Origin: a virus | Taxonomy: Duplodnaviria > Caudoviricetes | Reading direction: 5' to 3' (one strand) | Length of the DNA stretch: 64,000 nucleotides | IMG/VR virus record: IMGVR_UViG_3300042139_000023 | Shown here: positions 16,640 through 61,635 of the stretch, in pieces | Position numbering within the stretch: the stretch's first letter is position 1 | Layout of the letters: each line of letters opens with the position of its first letter | Program-made: the position numbers and the translations under genes | The notes under the pieces: model-generated | The model's database searches: none | What the model saw: only the letters and a program-made list of their open reading frames with translations | Told to the model about the DNA's origin: nothing

Positions 16640-16852
16640 AGGCCAGAAGGCGCTGACGGATGCATGGTCCTAACCTGGGACCCAAATTCAAATTCAATTC
16701 CGCATTTGGTTTTCTACCCTGAGTGAATTTCGACAGAATTTCCCGCGAATTTTTCCGCAGGTTTTCTCGCACCCGCTCCGCTCGCACTCCCGCTCACATT
16801 CCCTTGCATATCCATGTGCATTCATTGTGCATATGTGTGTGCATTGACGTGA

Positions 16853-16907
16853 GATAGATAGCTAGTGAATAGACCCTAGATATCCCTGCATTAGCTAGCT
16901 ATCTATC
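16853..16907. repeat. Perfect 13-bp inverted repeat
   Basis: GATAGATAGCTAG (16853-16865) / CTAGCTATCTATC (16895-16907). Confidence 0.9.
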
Positions 16908-17195
16908 CCCCTGCTTTCCCTTGCTTGCATTGCTGCGCATTCCCCCTGCATTCCATCTGTTGCATTCCCTCCCACATTCCGAGTGCACGTGATGAGAGAC
17001 AGCAGATATCGAGACTCCGAATGCGTCGCTTGCTTTCCCTCGCTTTCCTTTTCCCTTGCCTCCCGCTTTCCTCTCACTGCATAGGTTCATGTGTATGTGT
17101 GTATTGGGTGTGACCAGTACAGACGAGAATGCGAAATAGCGATATCGAGATACCCGCGCATTCCCGTTCCGTGCGCTCCCGCATTCCCCCTGAAT

Positions 17196-17399
17196 TCCCG
17201 CGCGCTCCCGCTCCCGGTCACGTGCTCCCACCTGCACGCATACACACATGATCATGAGCACTGCGCATAGCGAGCGATCACCCGTTCACACGCTCCCGCA
17301 TGGCACCCGTACCCGAGTGCGCCGTACCCGCTCACGTGCTCTCACGACAGGCACCCGAGCACGCGCACCGTGCGCGCATCCCGCGCGCTCCCGCTCCCG
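17196..17399 (+). repeat. 21-bp direct repeat, 2 copies
   Basis: TCCCGCGCGCTCCCGCTCCCG at 17196-17216 and 17379-17399. Confidence 0.9.
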
Positions 17400-17925
17400 C
17401 GCGCACCGCTGCACGCGCGTGCGACGCGCGCACCCTGGCCACCCCTCCCGCTCACATGTGTACTCACGTGCTCATCTGTGCTGATCATTCCCCTCAGCTT
17501 CACATTCTTCCCACACCCTTCCCTTCCCTCTCAAATCAGACATACCTACACACATGTTCCTGATATCCGGGAGCGCGCTAGACGTGCTGCACTCCGGGAG
17601 CATTCCGAGTTTCCGCAGGTCAGCAGCATGATCCCTGCAAACTCCGACATTCGGGACAACGCTGTGACCTGCGGTTTCAACAGTTCGTTGTACCGGTTTC
17701 GAGCGTCAGAAAGCGGAGCGATCCTGACTAAATAAGTAACTAAGAGTGGTTGACCCTCACTTGCTTCTCACCCTCTGTATATGCATTGCAGGTCGCAGCG
17801 CTGACGTGCGCGTACGTGCATGATTCGGACATGTGGGAGTTATGAGCACACATGCCGCCGCCTTCCTCACTCTCGAAACCCTCCCCGCGCTGCCTGTCTC
17901 GCGTAGCTATGTCCGAGTTTGTACA

Positions 17926-17941
17926 TGTGACCTGCGTCACA
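17926..17941. promoter_or_regulatory. CRP-consensus box TGTGA-N6-TCACA (copy 1)
   Basis: TGTGACCTGCGTCACA. Confidence 0.6.
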
Positions 17942-18170
17942 CTTTTATCGATGCTTGCTACACCTACCGATTTGCTCGCTCGTTTGCTCACCGCAAATTC
18001 TTGACCCATCTGTCGTACATGTCCGTTTCGTGTCGTGAAGTCCGGTACGATCTCCATGCCTCTGACCTGCACAAACAGATTCGTTCGTCGCATCGTCGCA
18101 GGTCCAAGAGTTGCGAGAACCTTTTTCGAGAAAATCTTGAAACTCATCGTTTCCGCAGGTCAGAGCCCAA

Positions 18171-18186
18171 TGTGACCTGCGTCACA
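18171..18186. promoter_or_regulatory. CRP-consensus box TGTGA-N6-TCACA (copy 2)
   Basis: Identical 16-mer TGTGACCTGCGTCACA. Confidence 0.6.
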
Positions 18187-19348
18187 GGTTGTAGGTCCTG
18201 AACTCCGGTAGCGCTCTGACCTGCACGTTTCTTGATCACATGACACGCCGTCAGCAACCCCACACTTGCAATGGCAGCCATGTTTCTGCTTGTGTTTGGC
18301 CTGTCGCCACGACGCGGCGCCCGCTCCGGCGGGACGCGGCGCGGGGCGAGTGCAGGGGCCCGGTTCCAACCCGGGCCACACCCGCCCGGGTGTTCCTCCG
18401 CTTCACGTGGGGGGTGACCGGGGAGGGCTCACACGAACTCTGTGACGCATGCGGTTCGCCGTAGCGACGTCGGGAGGGGAAACGGGAGGCACGATCCCCG
18501 GGTGAGGCGGACGGGAGCGAAACGCGCTAGCCGTAATGGCGCGGGAAGCACTCGAATGCGGTTCCTTGTGATCCTCGGAGCCCTTTCGCACACGATCCCC
18601 GGTAACCCGGGAGTGCGGGAGCGGCGCAAACGGCAAGCCACGCGGTCCCCTAGGGGGCGCCGGAAAGCGTGGCCACTCGAACCGGTGGGAGGGGTCACCC
18701 TTTTGCCAGTCGGGAATACGGCGCACGGAGTACGTGACCACTTGCCGGAATGCCTTACAGCCGCAACCTACGCGGACAGGGAATCCGGGAATGTCACAGG
18801 AAACGTGTTAAAGCGTTAGTCCGGTTCCCGCGAGTTGCGGCGCACGCAAGTACGGCCCTCTAGTCCGGGAGGTCAACCACAAGCCACGTGGGGAAACCGG
18901 GGGAATGGTGGGGAAAGCGTGTCGAAATAGTCAGTCCGCAGCAAAACCCGTTTCACCACTGGTTCGAGCCAAACGCACTATGCGGGTACGGCATAGATGA
19001 TCACGCACTCTCCCGGGAGGGGTTCCGGGGGTGACGTGCGACGGTACGGCGGGATACCAGGGGTGTCGGAACCCTTGCCCGTGACGGACGGGAGCGCTTA
19101 GCGCTTCCGTCCCCCGGGGGATTCGGACGCGACACGTTGCGACGCGCCGGTTTCCACACGGAAATACGGGACGCGCTCTGATGTGGCGCCGTTTCCCCCG
19201 GGATGCTCCACACTCACCGTGCGGTGAGCACGAACGGACAACACGGTTTCGGTCCGGTAGGCAGGGAGGCTAGAACTCCCGTGACGCTACGACGGGGAAA
19301 CTCTGTCCGTTCTTCCCTCCGCACGGAGGTTCGGGAAGGATTCCGGCA

Positions 19349-22638: not shown

Positions 22639-23022
22639 ATGCAGGAATCCATGACGCGCGGTGAGTGGTGGGACGAGTCGGCCCCGTACGGGCCGAACGG
22701 GTACACGTACGGGCGCGGTGAGCGGGTGGCGAACGCTCAGGTTGCCCGGGAGATCACGTTCGACATGCAGCCGGGTGACCCGAACTGTGTCGCGCGGGGT
22801 GTCGCCGAGATGACCGACGGCCGCGTGTACATGTTCACGGTCGTGCGGGAGGAGTTCGCCCGGCACTGCAAGGCGGACGGCCGCACGCGGCGCCGGTTCG
22901 CGGCCCTGTCGCGTCAGCCGTTCCGGGAGGCCGCTTCCGAACTGATGGCATGGGAGGTCGCCGGGCACCGCATCCGCCCGGCGGACGTGCCGGAGTACGT
23001 GAGGCAGATCAACGCGCTCTGA
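22639..23022 (+). CDS. Hypothetical protein
   Basis: RBS GAAGGGAGA. Confidence 0.8.
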   Translation: MQESMTRGEWWDESAPYGPNGYTYGRGERVANAQVAREITFDMQPGDPNCVARGVAEMTDGRVYMFTVVREEFARHCKADGRTRRRFAALSRQPFREAASELMAWEVAGHRIRPADVPEYVRQINAL

Positions 23023-23029
23023 CGTCGGG

Positions 23030-23083
23030 GAGACGCCCTAGGCGAACCGGTCCGGGAACGGACCGGGGCGCCGGGAGTGCCGC
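23030..23083 (+). ncRNA. Intergenic structured element, family 2 (copy a)
   Basis: GAGACGCCCTA-[stem-loop]-GGGAGTGCCGC. Confidence 0.5.
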
Positions 23084-23146
23084 CCGGCACTGCGGGCCCG
23101 GTCACATCGGATCGGGCCCATTGGTTCGGAAAGAGAGAAGATCAAC

Positions 23147-23554
23147 ATGCGTGCAGCATTCGCGGGAATCCTCGCCGGTCTCGTCGCCCTGTTCTCGCTG
23201 AGCGGGAGTGCGGAAGCGGCCCCCGCCCGCCCGTCGGTGAAGGTGGTCAAGTCGGTCTGCGAGACCGGCCACCGGGGCATGCCGGAGTACGACCGTAAGT
23301 GCCTGAAGACCGGGACGATCCTGGACGGGGTCAACCTGTGGTTCCGGTACATCGAGGGCGGCGCGGTGAGCAAGGCCGACCGCAAGGCGTTCTGCAAGGA
23401 CGCGACCAGCACGGGCCACACCCGCGCCGGGATCATCGACGGCCTGTTCGATGTCGCGTACGACAACTACCGGAACCACAAGCTGATGCTCTCGGTGGCC
23501 GGGACCGTCGGCGTGATGGACTGCCAGCAGCTCGGGGTCAAGATCAAGAAGTAG
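23147..23554 (+). CDS. Secreted protein with Sec signal peptide
   Basis: MRAAFAGILAGLVALFSLSGSAEA|A; four Cys. Confidence 0.75.
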   Translation: MRAAFAGILAGLVALFSLSGSAEAAPARPSVKVVKSVCETGHRGMPEYDRKCLKTGTILDGVNLWFRYIEGGAVSKADRKAFCKDATSTGHTRAGIIDGLFDVAYDNYRNHKLMLSVAGTVGVMDCQQLGVKIKK

Positions 23555-23574
23555 TCCGGCCGGACCGGCGGACG

Positions 23575-23604
23575 GGAGCGCGCGGGAGGGGGCCCGCGCG
23601 TTCC
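23575..23604 (+). ncRNA. GGAG...UUCC hairpin, family 1 (copy A)
   Basis: GGAGCGCGCGGG-loop-CCCGCGCGTTCC. Confidence 0.6.
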
Positions 23605-23645
23605 AGCCTGCTTGTCCAGTGGGAACCGAGGAGAGGGAGAAGATC

Positions 23646-23963
23646 ATGGCAAAACTTTCGGCGGCCGGGCGACTCGTGCTGTTCCTGGTCGACAGTCCGC
23701 ACGCGCACGTCAGCTACTCGCTGGGGGGCGGGTTCCGTCCGTCCGTCATCGCGTCCATGGAGCGGGGCCACGGGACGAAATCGAACCCGCGTGCCGACAC
23801 GGTTCTGAAGCTGATCGACGTCGGCGTACTGGCGGGGGCGGAGTTCGCCGATCTGACGCTGACCGACCGGGGCCGGACGATCCTCGCCGAACAGGTGGCG
23901 GCCGGGTGGGAGCTGGTCACCGGGACCGGTCACAAGCCGTACGTGCAGCGCAAGGACGCGTGA
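23646..23963 (+). CDS. Possible winged-helix-like protein
   Basis: TVLKLIDVGVL...LTLTDRGR pattern. Confidence 0.5.
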   Translation: MAKLSAAGRLVLFLVDSPHAHVSYSLGGGFRPSVIASMERGHGTKSNPRADTVLKLIDVGVLAGAEFADLTLTDRGRTILAEQVAAGWELVTGTGHKPYVQRKDA

Positions 23964-24049
23964 CCGGATGACGGGAGCGCCCGGGGTATCGGCCCCGGGC
24001 GCTGACGCCACCTTGTCACGGACCGAACCGAGGAAAGGGAGAAACGGGA

Positions 24050-24586
24050 ATGATCAAGCCGTACGGAATCAAGGTCACCGCGTACCGGGAGGGTTCGGAC
24101 TCCGGCATGTATCACGTGCGGGAGTTCGACGCGCCGGGACGTGCGGAAGCGGTCGCGGCCGTGCGTTCGTGGCTGCTGGTCGAGGGGTACGACGTCGACC
24201 GGTCCAAGATCGAAGTGGTGGCGGACGGGATGAGCCTCGCCGCTCACATGTCCCGGGAGCTGGTGAACCTGGGCGCCCGCATGTCCCTGCGCCACAGCGT
24301 GAGCATGGACGGCCCGCGTACCTGGGTGGACGGGAACGGCGAGCGGGGCGCGGCCGTGAAGCTGTGGGCGGCGAACGGGCGCGGCGTGTCGGTCTCGTCG
24401 AAGCTGGACGAGAACGGGTTCATTCACTCGGAGTTCGCGGCGATCCGGGAGGACGCGACCGACCGGCACGGGTGGGTGTTCGACGACACGGCACAGCACT
24501 ACCCGGAGCGCACGACGGTCGGGGACGGGTTCGACGGTGACGTGTCGGAGATGCTGACGCGGATCGTCGATCTGCCCCGGAAGTAA
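24050..24586 (+). CDS. Hypothetical protein
   Basis: RBS GAAAGGGAGA. Confidence 0.8.
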   Translation: MIKPYGIKVTAYREGSDSGMYHVREFDAPGRAEAVAAVRSWLLVEGYDVDRSKIEVVADGMSLAAHMSRELVNLGARMSLRHSVSMDGPRTWVDGNGERGAAVKLWAANGRGVSVSSKLDENGFIHSEFAAIREDATDRHGWVFDDTAQHYPERTTVGDGFDGDVSEMLTRIVDLPRK

Positions 24587-24612
24587 CGAACGGGTCACGA
24601 TGTAGGCGGACG

Positions 24613-24639
24613 GGAGCGCCCGGATCCTCCGGGCGTTCC
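24613..24639 (+). ncRNA. GGAG...UUCC hairpin, family 1 (copy B)
   Basis: GGAGCGCCCGGA-tcc-TCCGGGCGTTCC. Confidence 0.6.
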
Positions 24640-24661
24640 AGCCGGTCTATGATCGGGCAAC

Positions 24662-24671
24662 GGCCTAGGCC
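24662..24671. promoter_or_regulatory. GGCCTAGGCC palindrome (copy 3)
   Basis: Intergenic, downstream of TATGAT. Confidence 0.6.
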
Positions 24672-24704
24672 GAACGGGAACGACGAACGGAAAGAGAGAA
24701 GATC

Positions 24705-25082
24705 ATGGCTGCTGACCCTTACAACACGGGCCTTCAGAGCTGGCAGACGTTCATCACGGTCCTGCGGGCCGGGAAGGCGCTGAACGGCGGCGGGCACCGG
24801 CCGCGCGGCGCGGGTGCGGTGGACGTCATCCCGTCGGACGCGCCCGACGGGGGCGCCGGGAGCCGCACGGGTTCGTGGCTGGGCTCGGAGTGGGACGAGT
24901 CGGTCTCGCGCGCCGACAAGATCATCTACTTCTACAACACGCCGATCGCGTACACGATCCCGATGTTCGGGTGGGTCGTGCCGAACGTGAACCACACGGC
25001 CACCACGACCGGCGCGCAGAACCGCATCCGGGAGGCGCTGAAGTCGCGCGGGATCTCGTACGCGGAGACGCCGGGCCACTGA
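24705..25082 (+). CDS. Conserved-type phage protein (YNTPIAY...TT..QN..REAL)
   Basis: Recognisable Y-x-TPIA...S/T-x-TT pattern. Confidence 0.8.
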   Translation: MAADPYNTGLQSWQTFITVLRAGKALNGGGHRPRGAGAVDVIPSDAPDGGAGSRTGSWLGSEWDESVSRADKIIYFYNTPIAYTIPMFGWVVPNVNHTATTTGAQNRIREALKSRGISYAETPGH

Positions 25083-25106
25083 ACGACGGGCGCGCGGTCG
25101 CGTTCG

Positions 25107-25138
25107 GGAGCGTGCGGGGATCCGTCCCCGCCCGTTCC
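25107..25138 (+). ncRNA. GGAG...UUCC hairpin, family 1 (copy C)
   Basis: GGAGCG-t-GCGGGGA / TCCCCGC-c-CGTTCC. Confidence 0.6.
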
Positions 25139-25171
25139 AGTGCACGACCGGACGACGGAAAGAGGGAAGAC

Positions 25172-25507
25172 ATGGCGACGTACGAATACCTGAAGCCCGG
25201 CGAGGCGCTGGCCAGGGCGCACGAGAGCGCGCGGGACTTCGAGAAGATCATCGGGCTGCGCGGGATGGACGCCGAGAACATCCGGCCCCGGATCGAGCGG
25301 ACGCGGGCCGGGTACATGCACCCGCCGTTCGACACGTGGCGCGCGTACGGGAGCCGCGACCAGATGCGGGAGATCGTCAAGGTCGAGAGGACCGGCGGCG
25401 ACGCGGACCCCGGGACGATCACGGTCACGTTCAAGGGCGACGACGGCACGGAGGAGTCGACCTACCTGCACAGGTTCGACCTGCTCTGTGTCGAACGCCC
25501 CATCTGA
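25172..25507 (+). CDS. Hypothetical protein
   Basis: RBS GAAAGAGGGAAG. Confidence 0.8.
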   Translation: MATYEYLKPGEALARAHESARDFEKIIGLRGMDAENIRPRIERTRAGYMHPPFDTWRAYGSRDQMREIVKVERTGGDADPGTITVTFKGDDGTEESTYLHRFDLLCVERPI

Positions 25508-25521
25508 CGCGGTCGCGTTCG

Positions 25522-25549
25522 GGAGTGCCGGGAGGGGGCCCGGCATTCC
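25522..25549 (+). ncRNA. GGAG...UUCC hairpin, family 1 (copy D)
   Basis: GGAGTGCCGGG / CCCGGCATTCC. Confidence 0.6.
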
Positions 25550-25582
25550 AGTGCACAACCGACGGAAGGGAGAAACGGCAGC

Positions 25583-26023
25583 ATGGACACGACACAGCAG
25601 AAGATCGACGACATCCGGCGGGGTTCGCTGCTCCAGACGGCGGGCGGTTTCGTGATCGCCGATCTGGACGGATGGACGGCCGGGAGCGGTGACGGCCGGG
25701 TCGAGCCGCAACAGTTCCTGTACGACACGGACGGGCGGCGCCACTTCCCCAACCCCACGGACGGGACGCTGACGGTCGGGATCGCCACGTTCCGCACGCA
25801 GGAGTACGGCAAGGTGCCCGGGAAGGACACGCAGGGTCACGCGCTGCTCAACATGGTGCCGGGCGAGCCTCCGGCCGGTCTGTGCCCCGCGTCCCGGAAC
25901 CTCGGGAACAAGCTGTCGGTCTGGTCGTCGGGGACAGCGCTCACGGGTGTCACGTGCCGGGCATGCCGGAAGATGATCGGTCTCGTCAACACGGGTGCGC
26001 CCCGGCAGAGCAACGGGATCTGA
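25583..26023 (+). CDS. Hypothetical protein with C-terminal zinc-finger-like CRAC
   Basis: HALL...LC...VTCRACRK. Confidence 0.75.
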   Translation: MDTTQQKIDDIRRGSLLQTAGGFVIADLDGWTAGSGDGRVEPQQFLYDTDGRRHFPNPTDGTLTVGIATFRTQEYGKVPGKDTQGHALLNMVPGEPPAGLCPASRNLGNKLSVWSSGTALTGVTCRACRKMIGLVNTGAPRQSNGI

Positions 26024-26025
26024 TC

Positions 26026-26298
26026 ATGGACGAGTTCGCCTACCACTCCCCCGGCGCGAAAGCGGGGGTCCTGCACATGCGGGAACTGACGGACGACGTC
26101 TTGCGCACGATCGCCCGGGACGGGGACCACGTGACCCCGGAGTTCCGGGAGGTCTACGCGTTCATGGAGACGGTCAAGGACGGCGACCGCCCGACGAATG
26201 CCGATTGGGTCACCGGGAGGGCGATCGACGAACTGTTCGACCGGAACGTGATCGACGGTGAGCAGTGGGACCACATGCGGCGGGAGGCGGGGCTGTGA
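26026..26298 (+). CDS. Hypothetical protein
   Basis: Coupled ORF. Confidence 0.75.
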   Translation: MDEFAYHSPGAKAGVLHMRELTDDVLRTIARDGDHVTPEFREVYAFMETVKDGDRPTNADWVTGRAIDELFDRNVIDGEQWDHMRREAGL

Positions 26299-26576
26299 AG
26301 CTGATCGCCGTTGACCCATGGGACTGCGGGTGTACGGAGTGCATCACGGGCGAGTACGTGCCCCTGCGGTACGCCACGGACGAACAGGTGGCCGACCTGA
26401 TCATGGGGAGGCTGCGCAACAACCTGAACTCCGGTACCCAACTGGAGATCCACACCACGTACGCGACGGAGAACGGGAAGCTGGTTCTTCACGACGTCAC
26501 GGTGACGTACGAGCACCACGACGGAGAGACGCGGGAGTGGTCACCGGACCCGTACCGGATGGGTCTCGCCGCGTAG
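26295..26576 (+). CDS. Hypothetical protein (DCGCTEC)
   Basis: GTGA coupling. Confidence 0.75.
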   Translation: MKLIAVDPWDCGCTECITGEYVPLRYATDEQVADLIMGRLRNNLNSGTQLEIHTTYATENGKLVLHDVTVTYEHHDGETREWSPDPYRMGLAA

Positions 26577-26643
26577 CAACGCACGGAAGTCAAGGACGGA
26601 CGCCGGGCCCACACGGGCCCGGCCGGAAGGGAGAAACGAGATC

Positions 26644-27267
26644 ATGGCGCGCACCCTGGAAGGGTTTCACGACCTGCTGGCCGACCTGTTGATCAACACC
26701 CGCCGGAAGCACGACGGGCGCCCCGGACCGGGACAGCTCGGTTACCTGGGCGACGAGTCGGCCGACGCGGTGACCATGTGGCGGCACATGGCGCACCTGG
26801 CGCACTCGTACGCGAACGGGGCCGAGGTGCGCGGGATCCGGCCGACGTGGTCGGACCTGTGGGAGGACGGCATGGACCGGGAGAAGTTCCTGGCCCTGAT
26901 CGCCGACCGGTCCCGCATCCTGCGCGCCGTGAAGAGCGGGGGCGACATGGACACGATGCTCGTGGACGACTCCGTGCGGTACTGGGAGTTCACCCTGGCC
27001 CTGTCCACGGTGACGGACGACGAGAACGCCGAGTCGGCCCGGCAGAACGGGAACCGGGAGGCCGCGCGCCGGATCATGCTGGAAACGGAGATCGACCTGG
27101 CCGTGATCCGGGCGTACACGGACGTCGACATTGCGACCCTGCGGCGCACGCTGCGGGAGTGCAAGGGTGAGCGCCCCATGTCGCCGGGCGTGGACGGCAA
27201 CGGCGCCCGGAAGTGGGAGCCGCACCCGCTGTTCGACCTGATCACGGCCAACCGGCCGACGGTCTGA
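26644..27267 (+). CDS. Hypothetical protein
   Basis: RBS GAAGGGAGA. Confidence 0.8.
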   Translation: MARTLEGFHDLLADLLINTRRKHDGRPGPGQLGYLGDESADAVTMWRHMAHLAHSYANGAEVRGIRPTWSDLWEDGMDREKFLALIADRSRILRAVKSGGDMDTMLVDDSVRYWEFTLALSTVTDDENAESARQNGNREAARRIMLETEIDLAVIRAYTDVDIATLRRTLRECKGERPMSPGVDGNGARKWEPHPLFDLITANRPTV

Positions 27268-27353
27268 CATCACGGAGCGCCGCTGTTCGGGCGGGCGCGG
27301 GGCCACGGTCCCGCATCCGTCCGTGTGGTGACGGTTCACGGGAAGGGGAAGAG

Positions 27354-27659
27354 ATGCGAGCGACGACGACGGAACTCCTCCGGGCGTTCATCCAGCCGGG
27401 AGACGAGATCGCCGACAGCCGGGCCGACGTGCACGACGTGTTCAAGGTCATGCACTCCGGCTACGGGTACGCGGGAGTGCTGCTGACGCAGCGCCCGACG
27501 GGCGGCACGGGCATGTCGTACAGCGTGTGGAACGTCGGAGCGGGCGGCAGGATCACGGCCACGATGACATCCCGGGACTTCCCGGCGGTGAGCGCCGCGT
27601 TCCTGGCGCGCGTGGCGGAGAAGGTCCGGGAGGACGGCATGGGAGAGGTGACGGTGTGA
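27354..27659 (+). CDS. Hypothetical protein
   Basis: RBS GGAAGGGGAAG. Confidence 0.75.
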   Translation: MRATTTELLRAFIQPGDEIADSRADVHDVFKVMHSGYGYAGVLLTQRPTGGTGMSYSVWNVGAGGRITATMTSRDFPAVSAAFLARVAEKVREDGMGEVTV

Positions 27660-28114
27660 AGAACACGTACCTGTACCGGCTTCCGGCCGGTAAGCGGTGG
27701 CTGTGGACGGCGGGACGCGCGGGCGCGGCCGACCTGTTCCTGAACCCGGAGACGGGCGACGGGACGGATCCGGACTGGCAGGGGTACATCGGCCTGTCGA
27801 ATCACCTCGGGCACATGCAAGAGCTGTTGCACAAGGCGATCGAGGACGAGCCGCGCGTGTGCATCGGAAAGCACTACATGATCCCGGGCTCGTTCTGTGA
27901 AGTCTCGCAGGCCCGGGAGGCGGAAGCGAGCGAGACGGTACGACTGGTCACCATGTGGACGTGGGATGCGCCGGTTCTGGAAGGGACCACGCTGTCACGG
28001 CTGCGCATGACCCTGAACCGGCCGACGGACGCGGAAGGGATGAGCAGCCGGGCCGACCGCATGGCCTTCCTGGAGGAGAACAAGGGGCACCGGATCGTGC
28101 CGGTGTGGATGTGA
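27656..28114 (+). CDS. Hypothetical protein
   Basis: GTGA coupling, GAGGTGA RBS. Confidence 0.75.
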   Translation: MKNTYLYRLPAGKRWLWTAGRAGAADLFLNPETGDGTDPDWQGYIGLSNHLGHMQELLHKAIEDEPRVCIGKHYMIPGSFCEVSQAREAEASETVRLVTMWTWDAPVLEGTTLSRLRMTLNRPTDAEGMSSRADRMAFLEENKGHRIVPVWM

Positions 28115-28200
28115 CGGAGCGCAGTGCTTCGGGCCTGCACGGGAGTGATTCCGTGCGGGTCCGTGGTGCCGGGCGGTCCGGCCGGAAGGGAGATTGAACC

Positions 28201-28692
28201 ATGGGCAAGACGCTGGATGAGTTGCTGCACGGGCCGAGCGCGCTCCCCGTGCTGGTCAAGGCCGACGGGACGTTCGAGACGGCGGTGTACCCGCCCGCGA
28301 CTCTCGCCGACTACGCGCCGGAGTCGATCGACGTCGACTATGAAGGCTCGTTCGAGGACGGGCAGATTCTCGACCACCACGAGCGGGACGCGATCGAGTC
28401 CGTCAAGGACGGGTGGACCGTGCTGACGGGATGGTCGGCCGATCCGTCCCTGTTCATCATGCGCAACGACCAGTACATCGGCGGGGCCCTGGCCGAGCAC
28501 ATCGCCGGGACGCCCGGACTGTGGGCGATCGTCTCCGTGGAGATGCACCCGCCCACGTGCGGCGCCGGGAAGGACGGGATGCCGTGCCCGGAGTGGGACG
28601 AGCACGAGACGTGCGAGCACGCCGAGGGCGGCGAGTCCGACGGTGTCGGGTGGGCGCTGGTTCACCGGGAGCCGCAGGGCGAGAACGCCTGA
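28201..28692 (+). CDS. Acidic hypothetical protein
   Basis: RBS GAAGGGAGA; D/E-rich. Confidence 0.8.
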   Translation: MGKTLDELLHGPSALPVLVKADGTFETAVYPPATLADYAPESIDVDYEGSFEDGQILDHHERDAIESVKDGWTVLTGWSADPSLFIMRNDQYIGGALAEHIAGTPGLWAIVSVEMHPPTCGAGKDGMPCPEWDEHETCEHAEGGESDGVGWALVHREPQGENA

Positions 28693-28707
28693 CCGGAGGG
28701 GACGGAA

Positions 28708-29337
28708 GTGCTGTACGCGATCTACGTTCCGACCGCCCGCACCCCGACGTCCGGTCTGGAAGTCGAGCGCCTGCCCTCACGGGAGCAGGCGGGGCGGTGC
28801 CTGCTGGAACGTAACCTCTTGGGCGCCGGGCGGACCTGGTTCCTGGGAGATGAGCCCTCCCGGTACGGAGCGTACCGGCCGGTGCGGGAGTGGGCCGACG
28901 CGGACGAGACCGGCTACATGCGGGTCTTCCTGCGCAAGGCCACGGAGCCGGTTCCCCGGCCGCTGGACACGCCTCATGAGGAGTGGCTGGTCAACCCGGG
29001 AGGCAAGCGCGGGGTCGTGGTCCGACTCCCGTGGGAGGCGGCCGACGGGGAAGTGGTCCGGCTGCTCAAGGACGGGTTGCGGGTGCTGCCGTCCGGTACG
29101 GCCCCGGCTCCGGCCCCTCGGAGCCGGACGGTCACGGCACCCACGCCGCTGGTCGTGGCACCCCGACCGGTCTGCGGGAGTTGCTTTCAGGTCAAGCATC
29201 CTACGGCCGGGTGCGGTTGCCCGGATACGGGCGCGGCCCTGGTGATGGAGATGCAGCGGCCGACCCGGGACGGATGGGAGGAATGCCCGGGGTGCGGCAA
29301 GGCGGTATCCGCGTACGCGCGGTGTGGTTGTTCGTGA
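28708..29337 (+). CDS. Hypothetical protein with C-terminal Zn-ribbons
   Basis: CGSC...CGC, CPGC...CGC. Confidence 0.75.
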   Translation: MLYAIYVPTARTPTSGLEVERLPSREQAGRCLLERNLLGAGRTWFLGDEPSRYGAYRPVREWADADETGYMRVFLRKATEPVPRPLDTPHEEWLVNPGGKRGVVVRLPWEAADGEVVRLLKDGLRVLPSGTAPAPAPRSRTVTAPTPLVVAPRPVCGSCFQVKHPTAGCGCPDTGAALVMEMQRPTRDGWEECPGCGKAVSAYARCGCS

Positions 29338-29363
29338 TCAGATCAGGCAAGGGAGAGGGACGT

Positions 29364-29630
29364 ATGAGCAGCGGAAGCGGACCCCGGGAGATCGTCGTGC
29401 GGCGTAAGCAGCACGCATCGCATGGCGTGCCGACGATGGGCTTCGGCGCCCGGGACATGCAGACGGGTGCGCACATCTGGCTTCCGTCCCCGATCAAGGA
29501 CGGTGACCGGTTCACGGAGGGCCGGGAGTCGGCGGAGATCGTCGCCCGGAAGCTGCTGCCGGACGGCGCGCGGCTGCTGTGGGACCGGGACACCCCGGAG
29601 ACGTACGTCTTCACGGTGGCCGGTGCATGA
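29364..29630 (+). CDS. Hypothetical protein
   Basis: RBS AAGGGAGAGGG. Confidence 0.7.
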   Translation: MSSGSGPREIVVRRKQHASHGVPTMGFGARDMQTGAHIWLPSPIKDGDRFTEGRESAEIVARKLLPDGARLLWDRDTPETYVFTVAGA

Positions 29631-29737
29631 TCTTCGGTCTCGTGTTCGTCCTGTACTTCGGGTGTGGGCTGGCCTGCATGGGCCTGCGGTACCTGTGGGC
29701 GGGACTGCGCAAGATCAGAGACGGCAAGGCTGGGTGA
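29627..29737 (+). CDS. 36-aa membrane peptide
   Basis: ATGA coupling; hydrophobic N-terminus, basic tail. Confidence 0.55.
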   Translation: MIFGLVFVLYFGCGLACMGLRYLWAGLRKIRDGKAG

Positions 29738-29750
29738 TCTGAGGCATTCG

Positions 29751-29791
29751 GGAGGATTCGGGGCCGGGTTCGGCCCGGTTCCGAGTCTTCC
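29751..29791 (+). ncRNA. GGAG...UUCC hairpin, family 1 (copy E)
   Basis: 18-bp stem with four G-U pairs and no mismatches. Confidence 0.65.
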
Positions 29792-29818
29792 AGTGTGTTC
29801 CTGATCGGTCGAATGGTC

Positions 29819-30244
29819 ATGAACCGGACGGAAAGGATGGAAGCGGTGGAAGCTGCGCGAATGAAGTTCACGGCGGCGTTCGTCGAGGAAGTGGCGGCCC
29901 GGGTCGAGAAGATCACGGGTGGCATGTTCAAGCTGGGACCGGTCGGCTCGCACCCGGAGCACGGGACGTCGTACGCCGACGCGCGGGATGACCGGGTGTG
30001 GTACGGCCCGCAGGGTGCCCGGCAGGCGTGCGCGTTCTACACGGCCGCCGCCATGCGGTACCTGCACCTGATGGGCATCGAGCCCGACGGGGACGACGGT
30101 GAGTTCCTGCTGGCCGTGCAGGTGGCGTACTCCCGCTACGGGGCCACGGCCCGGGAGCGTGTCGACTACCACGAGTGGGAGATGCGGGGCGGTGACCGGG
30201 CGCAGGAACTGATCAACGCCGCCGAGGGCGACGCGCGCAACTGA
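29819..30244 (+). CDS. Hypothetical protein
   Basis: In-frame ORF in the co-oriented gene array; start uncertain. Confidence 0.75.
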   Translation: MNRTERMEAVEAARMKFTAAFVEEVAARVEKITGGMFKLGPVGSHPEHGTSYADARDDRVWYGPQGARQACAFYTAAAMRYLHLMGIEPDGDDGEFLLAVQVAYSRYGATARERVDYHEWEMRGGDRAQELINAAEGDARN

Positions 30245-33195: not shown

Positions 33196-33282
33196 GACGG
33201 GTTCGGGAGCGGCCGGTCCTGCGGGATCGGCCGCTGACGTGCCGTGTCGGACGGCGGAGTTGAATCGGAGAGGGAGAAGAGC

Positions 33283-37447: not shown

Positions 37448-37891
37448 ATGGGCGAGTGGACGATGCACGGCCAGGTGTGGGCCGACGACGGCGACGTGGG
37501 CGGGGACACGCAGATCGGGAAGGCGGCAAGCGTCCGGTTCGTGAACCCGGACTGCCCCGGCGCCCGGGTCACGGTGTACGCCTACGCCTCCGCTCCCGAG
37601 CGCTCGATCGAGGCCAAGGTCGGTTCGATCGAGGTGTTCATGGGCTACGACGCCGACCTGGGCAACCTCGGGATCGAGTCGCAGGTCTGGTTCGAGATCG
37701 ACGACGACGCCGAGGGCGACGCCGACGAGTGGGACCCGACCTGGTCGGAGATCAGGTACGAGTCGCTGGACTCGTACATCGCCCCCGGGCCGGACGAGAA
37801 GCGGGTGGCCGTGGCCGAGGCGGCGGCGCTCGCCTGGGTCCGGGCGTACGACCCCAAGAAATTCATCAACTGGGACGGCAAGCGGTTCTGA
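37448..37891 (+). CDS. Acidic hypothetical protein
   Basis: RBS GAGAGGGAGAAG; D/E-rich. Confidence 0.8.
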   Translation: MGEWTMHGQVWADDGDVGGDTQIGKAASVRFVNPDCPGARVTVYAYASAPERSIEAKVGSIEVFMGYDADLGNLGIESQVWFEIDDDAEGDADEWDPTWSEIRYESLDSYIAPGPDEKRVAVAEAAALAWVRAYDPKKFINWDGKRF

Positions 37892-37966
37892 GCCGGTGCG
37901 TTCGGGGCGGCGGGAGCTGTGGGTTCCCGCCGCCCAGTGCACATCGGACGGAAGGAGAGGGAGAGC

Positions 37967-40261: not shown

Positions 40262-40573
40262 ATGGCTGCTGGACTGACCCGCGAGACCACGCACTACATC
40301 GTCCATTCCACGGTCGTCGACCCGGGACCGAACTCCACCTTCGGCACCTCTCCCCCGTACTCGGGTGAGCGGGCGCTGGAGCGGGCCGTCAAGGCGGCCC
40401 ATCAGGAGTTGCGGGGGCGGCGCCGGGCGTTCGTGACGGCCCGAGACGACGCAAGCCGGATCCTCGCCGTGATCCCGGTCGTGGACTACCCGGTTTTCGG
40501 GGACACGCACGTCCCCGAGCATGCGCAGGACGCCATCACGGCCCTCTTCGAGGGGCTGGACTGGACGATCTGA
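40262..40573 (+). CDS. Hypothetical protein
   Basis: RBS GAGGAG. Confidence 0.75.
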   Translation: MAAGLTRETTHYIVHSTVVDPGPNSTFGTSPPYSGERALERAVKAAHQELRGRRRAFVTARDDASRILAVIPVVDYPVFGDTHVPEHAQDAITALFEGLDWTI

Positions 40574-40660
40574 CCCGGACGAAACCGGGCCCCTGGGAAG
40601 GGCTCCCGGTAGGCGGAACAGGACCGCCCTGACGAGTCCCGTCAGCACGGAGAGGAGAAG

Positions 40661-46423: not shown

Positions 46424-46462
46424 TTGACGGCGGGCCCCTTCGCTGTACGATGGCCTAGGTCA
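46424..46462 (+). promoter_or_regulatory. Sigma70-type promoter TTGACG-N16-TACGAT abutting GGCCTAGGTCA (copy 6)
   Basis: -35 at 46424-46429, -10 at 46446-46451, palindrome at 46452-46462. Confidence 0.6.
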
Positions 46463-52892: not shown

Positions 52893-52936
52893 TCTACCAC
52901 ACCACGAGAACACCGGAAACAGGAGAAGAACTCATC

Positions 52937-61547: not shown

Positions 61548-61635
61548 CTGACCCGAGGCCGAAACGCCGCACCCAGCGGCGTCGCGCAGTGAGACTGCGC
61601 CTGACGATGGCCGTCAGTGGAGGGAGGGGAGAGTA

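Follow-up and report, generated by a model that had tools for sequence, protein, structure and literature searches.

A family of covarying RNA hairpins between early genes of a Streptomyces phage, most likely marking processing points of the early message

Introduction

Several of the early genes in the window, a 64,000-nucleotide stretch of the IMG/VR virus record IMGVR_UViG_3300042139_000023, are separated by hairpins that share the base of their stem, which raises the question of whether these hairpins act in the RNA and, if so, what they do for the early message. This DNA makes up the early arm of a Streptomyces phage that has Frankenweenie, Kela, JustBecause and Satis among its relatives. 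An earlier note on this DNA had described five such hairpins, had stressed their GGAG/UUCC base with a G-U wobble as invariant and had likened them to RNase III-type processing sites. The early polycistronic mRNA of phage T7 contains the RNase III sites R0.3, R0.5, R1, R1.1 and R1.3. From pairing and covariation compared with controls, the hairpins, here called Family 1, are an RNA structure under selection; our analysis suggests that they most likely mark points of cleavage and stabilisation in the long early message, in a T7-like manner.

Location and surroundings of the hairpins

The five hairpins are present on the + strand, and a sixth copy, F, was found in addition (Table 1). All Family 1 copies are on the sense strand, each occupying the spacer from a stop codon to the RBS that follows. 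The stop codon is located 1–20 nt 5′ of the lower stem, and in copies C, D and F the RBS follows the lower stem within about 10–15 nt. In the five hairpins described before, 32–66 nt separate the stem from the start codon; they are non-random, with covariance-model E-values of 1e-7 to 1e-13 in 181 kb and fold z-scores of −2.1 to −6.2. The folded segments, taken with their flanks, are GC-rich and very stable (−36 to −50 kcal/mol). As described, copy E is free of mismatches and none of the five has a U-tail; no copy at all is followed by a U-tract, the 3′ flanks being AGUGCAC or AGCCNG.

Table 1. Family 1 copies and related hairpins in the window
Feature	Coordinates	Strand	Stem and loop	Model score (bits)	Fold	Neighbouring sequence
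Copy A (type 1a)	23561..23618	+	upper stem 23575–23604, 12 bp, loop 6	55.1 (model R1)	−49.4 kcal/mol, z −4.2	stop codon 23552–23554 upstream; ATG 23646 downstream
Copy B (type 1a)	24599..24653	+	upper stem 24613–24639, 12 bp, loop 3	51.0	z −4.6	3′ of the copy TATGAT (24649), palindrome GGCCTAGGCC, then RBS of ATG 24705
Copy C (type 1b)	25093..25152	+	upper stem 25107–25138, 13 bp and one U.C mismatch; lower stem CGGTCG/CGACCG	61.9		next ATG 25172
Copy D (type 1b)	25508..25563	+	upper stem 25522–25549, 11 bp, loop 6	63.1	z −3.6	stop codon 25505–25507 directly 5′ of lower stem; ATG 25583
Copy E (type 1b)	29737..29805	+	upper stem 29751–29791, 18–19 bp, 4–5 G-U	55.6	z −6.2	GTG start 29846
Copy F (type 1b)	37891..37949	+	upper stem 37905–37935, 14 bp, base GGGC/GCCC	62.8	z −5.6	flanks as in other copies, GCGTTCG...AGTGCACA; GTG start 37967
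Hairpin G (GGGAGCG...CGCTGAC)	23976..24003	+	12-bp stem above a 2x2 GG/GA internal loop and an imperfect lower stem			
Hairpin H	33208..33235	+	layout as hairpin G, loop UGCG			
Leader hairpin	19086..19112	+	12-bp hairpin GGACGGGAGCGC/GCGCTTCCGTCC	below threshold		untranslated leader, about 240 nt 5′ of first ORF

The two related hairpins listed in the earlier note, G and H, also exist; hairpin G is a non-member by the covariance model. The leader hairpin contains the ACGGGAGCGC...TTCC sequence common to the family and lacks the mismatch module described below. CGGGAG makes up the 5′ base of the stem, but no other hexamer is as frequent in the early arm as a whole, so that it is not a specific mark of the stems.

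A terminator scan returned sites in numbers no higher than in shuffled sequences and none at the elements, while terminator-like GAAGGGG...CCCCTTC hairpins are present in the genome solely outside 19–45 kb. No sigma-70-like promoter was found at 16–35.9 kb, nor any looser match on the + strand at 19–40 kb, although promoter prediction is weak in Streptomyces. Because the RBS is so close to the lower stem in copies C, D and F, a promoter would not fit into these three spacers. Other spacers between stop codon and RBS in the same gene array contain hammerhead-type cores with covarying stems, which suggests that the message is cut between cistrons. Family 1 occupies the equivalent position, but its helix is plain, with single mismatches at three places and no catalytic core of any known self-cleaving class. 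Searches of ten early proteins against Pfam and PHROGs yielded no function, and the 168-kb record contains no RNase III or dsRBD gene. The phage turns up in many DNA runs from soil and rhizosphere; in the one RNA run that contains it, X20, 19 short contigs were obtained whose coverage lies outside 23.6–26.8 kb, so copies A to D are missed.

Structure and covariation

The hairpins are the tops of longer helices in which 23–31 positions are stacked, 10–19 of them in the upper stem and 12 beneath it. At the bottom of each helix is a lower stem of about 6 bp; above it come a conserved module and a freely covarying upper stem, usually of 10–15 bp (10–15 positions in 25 of the 29 copies, with a mode of 12). 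The loops are 3–10 nt long and unrelated in sequence. The module lies just below the GGAG/UUCC base and comprises a G.A mismatch, an invariant C-G pair and a U.U or A.C mismatch; in type 1b copies it reads C.A, G-C, U-G, U.U, C-G, G.A. The pair C13-G70 is found in 29 of 29 copies, G15-C68 and G16-C67 each in 28, and the G.A mismatch in every row read. In this central module about 12–16 nt are conserved, even in a relative of 260 kb, with about one helical turn of variable helix on either side. With 10–15 positions above and 12 below, the invariant C-G pair and the G.A mismatch fall near the middle of a two-turn helix, and the length of 23–31 positions is sufficient for the about two turns (20 bp or more) of an RNase III substrate. 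In form, the elements do resemble a double-strand-specific processing site, with a helix of at least two turns and a mismatched centre about one turn from both loop and base.

Among the 29 distinct copies, 95.8% of 551 cells are paired and 17 of the 19 pairs show two-sided changes. The covariation score is 0.719, versus 0.220 in shuffles, none of 500 of which reaches it, and in slid controls pairing is 51% or less. The five outermost pairs of the lower stem, which were absent from the model that built the alignment, show up to five pair types each. That the element acts as + strand RNA, as previously proposed, is borne out by this strong covariation, by the G-U pairs, which make up 14.7% of the paired cells, and by the antisense strand, which scores about 17 bits versus 41–63 bits for the sense strand. 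The feature stressed in the earlier note fared differently. The GGAG...UUCC-AG base with G-U at the fourth pair is found in all five hairpins first described, but across the 29 distinct copies this pair is GU in 15, CG in 8, AU in 3 and GC in 3. Base and wobble are replaced by compensatory change, and for this reason they are not what is recognised.

Several other classes were considered for the element. The conserved flanks are between 27 and 41 nt apart in the window copies, which excludes a two-box DNA site; this variable spacing and the unrelated stems also led us to drop an N4-type DNA hairpin promoter and a two-box promoter. A CRISPR-repeat mimic was rejected on account of the upper stems, which are not conserved, and a self-cleaving ribozyme on account of the missing core of any known class. 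A tRNA-like RNase P minihelix was dropped, CCA and T-loop being absent; the 12-bp stem, a G1-C72-like pair and an A after the stem are suggestive of it. A boxB-like, loop-specific site, put forward in the earlier note, is unlikely because of the unrelated loops of variable length, and a lambda-type nut site, which has a conserved loop on a short stem and occurs once per operon behind the promoter, does not match these loops or the presence of 6–7 copies over 15 kb.

Distribution among related phages

In five genomes, the covariance model finds 5–7 strong copies per genome (41–63 bits), on the gene strand and in the early arm only; the next best match in the 168-kb genome has 15.6 bits. A 260-kb IMG/VR phage contig contains five further copies above 37 bits. 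Among the matches listed from two viral-contig pattern scans, the model kept the 260-kb contig and the contig L204, the rest being mostly chance. In the orthologs of copy F in the five genomes the upper stem has been rewritten, while the flanks are constant. Rfam 15 gave no match at gathering score in the window and none at an E-value of 1 or less in 19–42 kb, and no literature was found on the RNA of this phage cluster or on CGGGAG in phages.

The elements are better conserved than the genes that adjoin them: in Kela and Satis the spacer of copy B keeps 91% identity over 123–133 nt between flanking genes that have diverged. Alignment boundaries between relatives coincide with copies A, B, C, E and F and with hairpin G, and at copy E the blastn alignments with Kela and with Satis start at 29735. 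The gene at 23646–23963 plus one element forms an exact indel with respect to Frankenweenie, which has a single A-type element that aligns to both A and G, and Kela has a D-type upper stem where the window has the C type. As the flanks are conserved repeats, the elements also act as joints for the gain, loss or swap of gene cassettes.

Comparison with known systems

Like the T7 early sites, Family 1 consists of hairpins repeated between cistrons, in what would be an early operon transcribed inward from a genome end. In each case a conserved centre of non-Watson-Crick pairs separates an upper from a lower stem, over about two turns in all; a U-tail is absent, and after a cut the upstream message would end in a 3′ hairpin. 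They differ in that the sequences are unrelated, the host here is a high-GC actinobacterium, and the centre consists of three single mismatches around conserved pairs in Family 1 and of an asymmetric internal loop in T7; the Family 1 elements are putative cleavage sites. The sites of phage SP82 are likewise found in a large phage of a Gram-positive host, with early genes near the genome end, and show several sites with a conserved sequence within the hairpin, followed by a polypurine RBS region. The SP82 sites were mapped experimentally, whereas those of Family 1 are predicted from sequence.

The PeSLs of T4-type phages are, like Family 1, conserved intergenic stem-loop repeats beside small genes of unknown function, located at the boundaries of insertions, deletions and replacements between close relatives (PMC2839356). 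In a PeSL a strong sigma-70 promoter is coupled to a functional terminator (PMC2839356), whereas in Family 1 no promoter was found and the U-tract is absent.

Possible functions

Tentatively, and with somewhat less than even confidence, we favour the explanation that Family 1 is a cis-acting element of the early transcript, cut by a double-strand-specific endonuclease, most likely host RNase III. A long early transcript would start in the non-coding region at about 16.7–19.3 kb and be read inward from the genome end. The endonuclease would cut in or beside the conserved mismatched centre, which would leave the upstream cistron with a stable 3′ hairpin cap and make the polypurine RBS of the next cistron accessible. 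We infer RNase III of the host as the most likely enzyme because the phage record encodes none. The order of stop codon, hairpin and RBS without a U-tract fits a processing site, as had been suggested. Against this, terminating ribosomes would often melt the lower stem, the stop codon being so near to it, and no cleavage rules for Streptomyces RNase III are known. The conservation of the module exceeds the sequence need known for bacterial RNase III, and in this respect a dedicated protein fits at least equally well.

Such a protein, encoded by the phage or the host, could be an RNA-binding protein with the element as its operator, or a hairpin-specific endoribonuclease, reading the G.A / C-G / U.U module and controlling translation, stability or antitermination of the neighbouring cistrons. 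We consider this rather unlikely. The module is near-invariant while the stems on both sides of it covary freely, it is kept in the divergent 260-kb phage, and the early proteins tested are all without a recognisable family, so that such a factor could be among them; however, no candidate protein has been identified, the unrelated loops are not boxB-like, the many sites misfit a nut or put antitermination signal, which is single and lies behind a promoter, and a simple operator has no need of a symmetric two-turn helix. That Family 1, perhaps with the other hairpin families of the early arm, is the target of a phage-encoded hairpin-specific endoribonuclease or RNA-binding protein among the unannotated early proteins appears improbable.

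Ingham, Hunter and Smith reportedly described, in 1995, terminators without U-tracts in the early region of the actinophage phiC31. These too are GC-rich intergenic hairpins without poly-U in the early region of a Streptomyces phage, and with this claimed precedent, the hairpins described here, very stable, GC-rich and placed right after stop codons, could be read as U-less terminators or attenuators, factor-independent or factor-assisted, with downstream expression through read-through or antitermination. The spacer of copy B, with a −10-like TATGAT and a palindrome 3′ of the hairpin, is in line with this and counts against processing. Yet AGUGCA or AGCC stands where a U-tract would follow the stem, and the terminator-like hairpins of this genome avoid the region. 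In contrast to the phiC31 hairpins, Family 1 combines its conserved module of mismatches with a lower stem that covaries, both superfluous in a terminator, and abuts the next RBS in three copies, where a new promoter has no room. Recombinant actinobacterial RNA polymerase needs the U-tract: the purified mycobacterial enzyme did not terminate at hairpins lacking it, and the authors named contaminating nucleases as one possible cause of earlier reports of U-less termination (PMC3993855). The missing U-tract, the lack of promoter room and the hammerhead-type cores favour processing or stability sites, and termination seems unlikely.

Family 1 might also be kept mainly as recombination linkers, PeSL-like boundaries of mobile regulatory cassettes, with the hairpin as a generic protector of RNA ends. 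For all six copies a boundary was counted in at least one relative, and the exact indel of gene plus element, the swap of C- and D-type upper stems in Kela and the persistence of the elements beyond their neighbouring genes agree with this. Such a role would account for the spread of the elements but not for their conservation: the module is retained between the window and the distant 260-kb contig, the compensatory changes show selection on pairing, and the promoter part of a PeSL was not found. As the main reason for which the family is kept, linkage is therefore very unlikely; it is compatible with, and not exclusive of, the processing-site explanation.

Implications

As an RNA motif family, Family 1 is unannotated and has no Rfam entry; it occurs in a clade of Streptomyces phages of 185–260 kb in which all early genes are of unknown function. 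It offers a testable map of how the early message may be divided, for which wild-type and rnc-mutant hosts exist, and the target for mutation is corrected from the G-U wobble to the central mismatch module. If a dedicated phage protein were to read the hairpins, the clade would punctuate its early message by a protein-guided system together with hammerhead ribozymes. If U-less hairpins in the early regions of actinophages are processing sites, the older reports of U-less terminators need re-examination. In these phages, RNA punctuation would be linked to the exchange of gene cassettes between them.

Copies of the element and their distribution

The window corresponds to the reverse strand of a 168-kb IMG/VR record. 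In a megablast search, its region between 23 and 30 kb matches seven Streptomyces phages of 184–200 kb: Kela, JustBecause, Satis, Quantum, Kradal, EhyElimayoE and the closest relative, Frankenweenie, whose match covers 94% of the query at 89.6% identity. In all seven, the matching region is the right genome end, read inward, and all of its genes are annotated as hypothetical protein. The end of the Kela record aligns near window position 16,675, which thus corresponds to the physical genome end; about 2.7 kb without genes follow (16640–19348), after which a plus-strand gene array begins at 19.35 kb and continues to the window end. The first part of the gene-free stretch has lower GC, is C/T-rich on the plus strand and contains TTGAC-type boxes at 17.7–18.3 kb, and the second part, a GC-rich leader, is about 1 kb long and carries Family 1-like half sites (GGCGGACGGGAGCG at 18508 and a hairpin at 19086). 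Window and genome sequence disagree at 40 positions, the majority of which fall within 17.1–22.0 kb. For window positions 23000–30000, the phage or close variants are present in DNA sequencing runs from soil and rhizosphere, at least 19 in number and from about 18 studies; three of these runs may be where the DNA itself came from.

The five intergenic hairpins of Family 1 described in the earlier note (copies A to E) are all present in the window as claimed, copy C with a single U.C mismatch. A sixth, copy F, shares the flanks of the others (GCGTTCG...AGTGCACA), with GGGC/GCCC at its base instead. The covariance model search proposed in that note, performed with a model trained on these six copies, gives 5–7 matches of 41–63 bits in each of five genomes, our own and those of Frankenweenie, Kela, Satis and JustBecause; every match is on the gene strand and within the early arm. 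The opposite strand scores about 17 bits at these sites, and no other match above 15.6 bits is present in our own genome. A 260-kb IMG/VR contig with terminal repeats contains seven matches at E ≤ 0.1, five of them above 37 bits, on one strand and confined to 23 kb; among the matches listed there is also at least one in a 192-kb contig. Within the phage collection, the element occurs only in the seven phages named, none of which has it annotated.

Positions of the hairpins, hammerhead-type cores and hexamer-biased region in the window
Feature	Position	Strand	Type	Remarks
Copy A	23575–23604	+	1a	upper stem
Copy B	24613–24639	+	1a	upper stem
Copy C	25107–25138	+	1b	upper stem
Copy D	25522–25549	+	1b	upper stem
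Copy E	29751–29791	+	1b	upper stem
Copy F	37905–37935	+	1b	upper stem
Hairpin G	23976–24003			related, non-member by covariance model
Hairpin H	33208–33235			related, same layout as hairpin G
Hammerhead-type core	40571–40644	+		between stop codon and next RBS
Hammerhead-type core	61548–61617	+		between stop codon and next RBS; extra U before stem II
CGGGAG bias	18300–40000	+

Structure of the element

Folding with flanking sequence indicates that each hairpin caps a longer helix, of which two types can be distinguished. In type 1b (C, D, E and F), the lower stem is about 6 bp long (as in CGGUCG/CGACCG, CCGGUG/CAUCGG or CGGUGA/UUACCG) and is followed upwards by a C.A mismatch, a G-C and a U-G pair, a U.U mismatch, a C-G pair and a G.A mismatch, on which the upper stem is placed. 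Type 1a (A and B) has a different sequence, GGCGGACG...AGCCNGUC, in which the C-G pair and the G.A mismatch are kept and A.C takes the place of U.U. Among 29 distinct copies, standard pairs occupy 95.8% of 551 cells and 17 of the 19 pairs have changed on both sides. The observed covariation score, 0.719, was reached by none of 500 shuffles (0.220), and sliding the partner by 1–3 columns lowers pairing to 35–51%. The outermost five pairs of the lower stem show up to five pair types per position; because the alignment came from a model in which these positions were unpaired, the covariation there is not a fitting artefact. Pair C13-G70 is invariant, G15-C68 and G16-C67 have one variant each, and the opposed G and A beneath the upper stem show no change in any row read. 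In the E group the upper stem spans 19 positions, and in 25 of the 29 copies it spans 10–15, most often 12; the conserved module therefore lies about one helical turn away from both loop and base.

The invariant GGAG/UUCC base with G-U as fourth pair, proposed from the first five copies, does not hold. Besides copy F, the base differs in the Kela copy of A (GGAG/CUCC), an extra copy in Kela and JustBecause (GGAC/GUCC), the Satis copy of F (GAGC/GCUC) and copies of the 260-kb contig (GGAA/UUCC and GGAG/CUCC). The fourth pair is GU in 15 of the 29 copies, CG in 8, AU in 3 and GC in 3, so the wobble shared by the five window copies reflects common descent rather than a requirement. The suggestion that selection acts on plus-strand RNA and not on DNA is borne out: G-U pairs, which would give A.C on the opposite strand, make up about 15% of paired cells, and the covariance model scores are strand-asymmetric. 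Within the window alone, the conserved flanks are separated by anything from 27 to 41 nt, which excludes a DNA site with two boxes a fixed distance apart. The element is a sense-RNA structure.

CGGGAG, which makes up the 5' base of the stem, is more frequent in the early arm than any other hexamer: 13.7 kb contain 88 copies, versus 8 on the opposite strand. Counts per 10 kb, from 10 kb on, are 14, 67, 35, 17, 12 and 5, the density decreasing away from the genome end. In 10.5 kb of early coding sequence, 61 copies are observed versus 26.3 ± 3.6 after synonymous shuffling, far above the prediction from codon usage; Arg-Glu is encoded 39 times as CGG-GAG and never as CGC-GAG. Four relatives and the 260-kb contig share the bias. 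In the window, the reverse form CTCCCG is concentrated at 16–18 kb.

Genomic context and cassette joints

The element is located between a stop codon, 1–20 nt ahead of the lower stem, and a polypurine RBS, which in copies C, D and F starts about 10–15 nt past the lower stem. At all six copies, an alignment boundary is found in at least one relative. The gene at 23646–23963 is absent from Frankenweenie, where A and G both align to the one element present. Across 123–133 nt, the B spacer keeps 91% identity in Kela, JustBecause and Satis, where the upstream gene is absent or has 30% protein identity and the downstream gene has 32–38%; Kela also carries a D-type upper stem where the window has the C type. 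The elements thus behave like cassette joints, a property shared with the PeSLs of T4-type phages (PMC2839356), although Family 1 lacks a recognisable promoter. A consensus scan of 16–35.9 kb revealed no promoters and no excess of terminator-like sites over shuffles, and a looser Streptomyces-style promoter pattern had no plus-strand match at 19–40 kb, promoter prediction being weak in Streptomyces. The B spacer (24640–24704) may be a regulated internal promoter. It contains a -10-like TATGAT at 24649 and the palindrome GGCCTAGGCC at 24663–24672, which is also found ahead of hairpin H; a related palindrome, GGCCTAGGTCA, follows a promoter-like TTGACG-N17-TACGAT site at 46424.

Proposed function

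Family 1 is best read as a set of intercistronic sites for RNA processing and stability. The conserved centre would be cut by a double-strand-specific nuclease, with host RNase III as the likeliest candidate, and this would leave the upstream message with a 3' hairpin and free the RBS downstream. For D, F and the additional Kela/JustBecause copy, folding predicts pairing of the RBS with the end of the upstream ORF. The 168-kb record contains no RNase III or dsRBD gene. In this reading, Family 1 would function in the manner of the early sites of T7 and the sites of SP82, as a candidate member of that class. Next in rank is a dedicated RNA-binding protein or nuclease that would read the module, with which its high sequence conservation is compatible.

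Termination at the hairpins themselves ranks third. As the earlier note had observed, no U-tract follows the stem, and hairpins lacking one do not cause termination by recombinant mycobacterial RNA polymerase; contaminating nucleases are considered by the authors a possible cause of earlier reports of U-less termination (PMC3993855). Terminator-like GAAGGGG...CCCCTTC hairpins, followed by a few T, occur genome-wide and from 46 kb of the window on; there are none at 19–45 kb, where Family 1, Family 2 and the other early hairpins reside.

Processing of the message is also suggested by the two hammerhead-type cores in the same array. Their layout is GAAA, stem III, GUH, stem I, CUGACGA and an open stem II, the cut triplet being GUA, GUU or GUC, and stems I and III covary among orthologs from Frankenweenie, Kela, Satis and the 260-kb contig. 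Rfam 15 has no match at either core. A third such element is present in Frankenweenie and Kela and absent from the window, where the spacer at 52893–52912 is about 55 nt shorter than its counterpart in the compared sequence L253 (647–721) and is without it; the element is an optional cassette between the same genes. The presence of hammerhead-type cores in other spacers suggests that cutting of the message between cistrons is part of early-arm expression in these phages.
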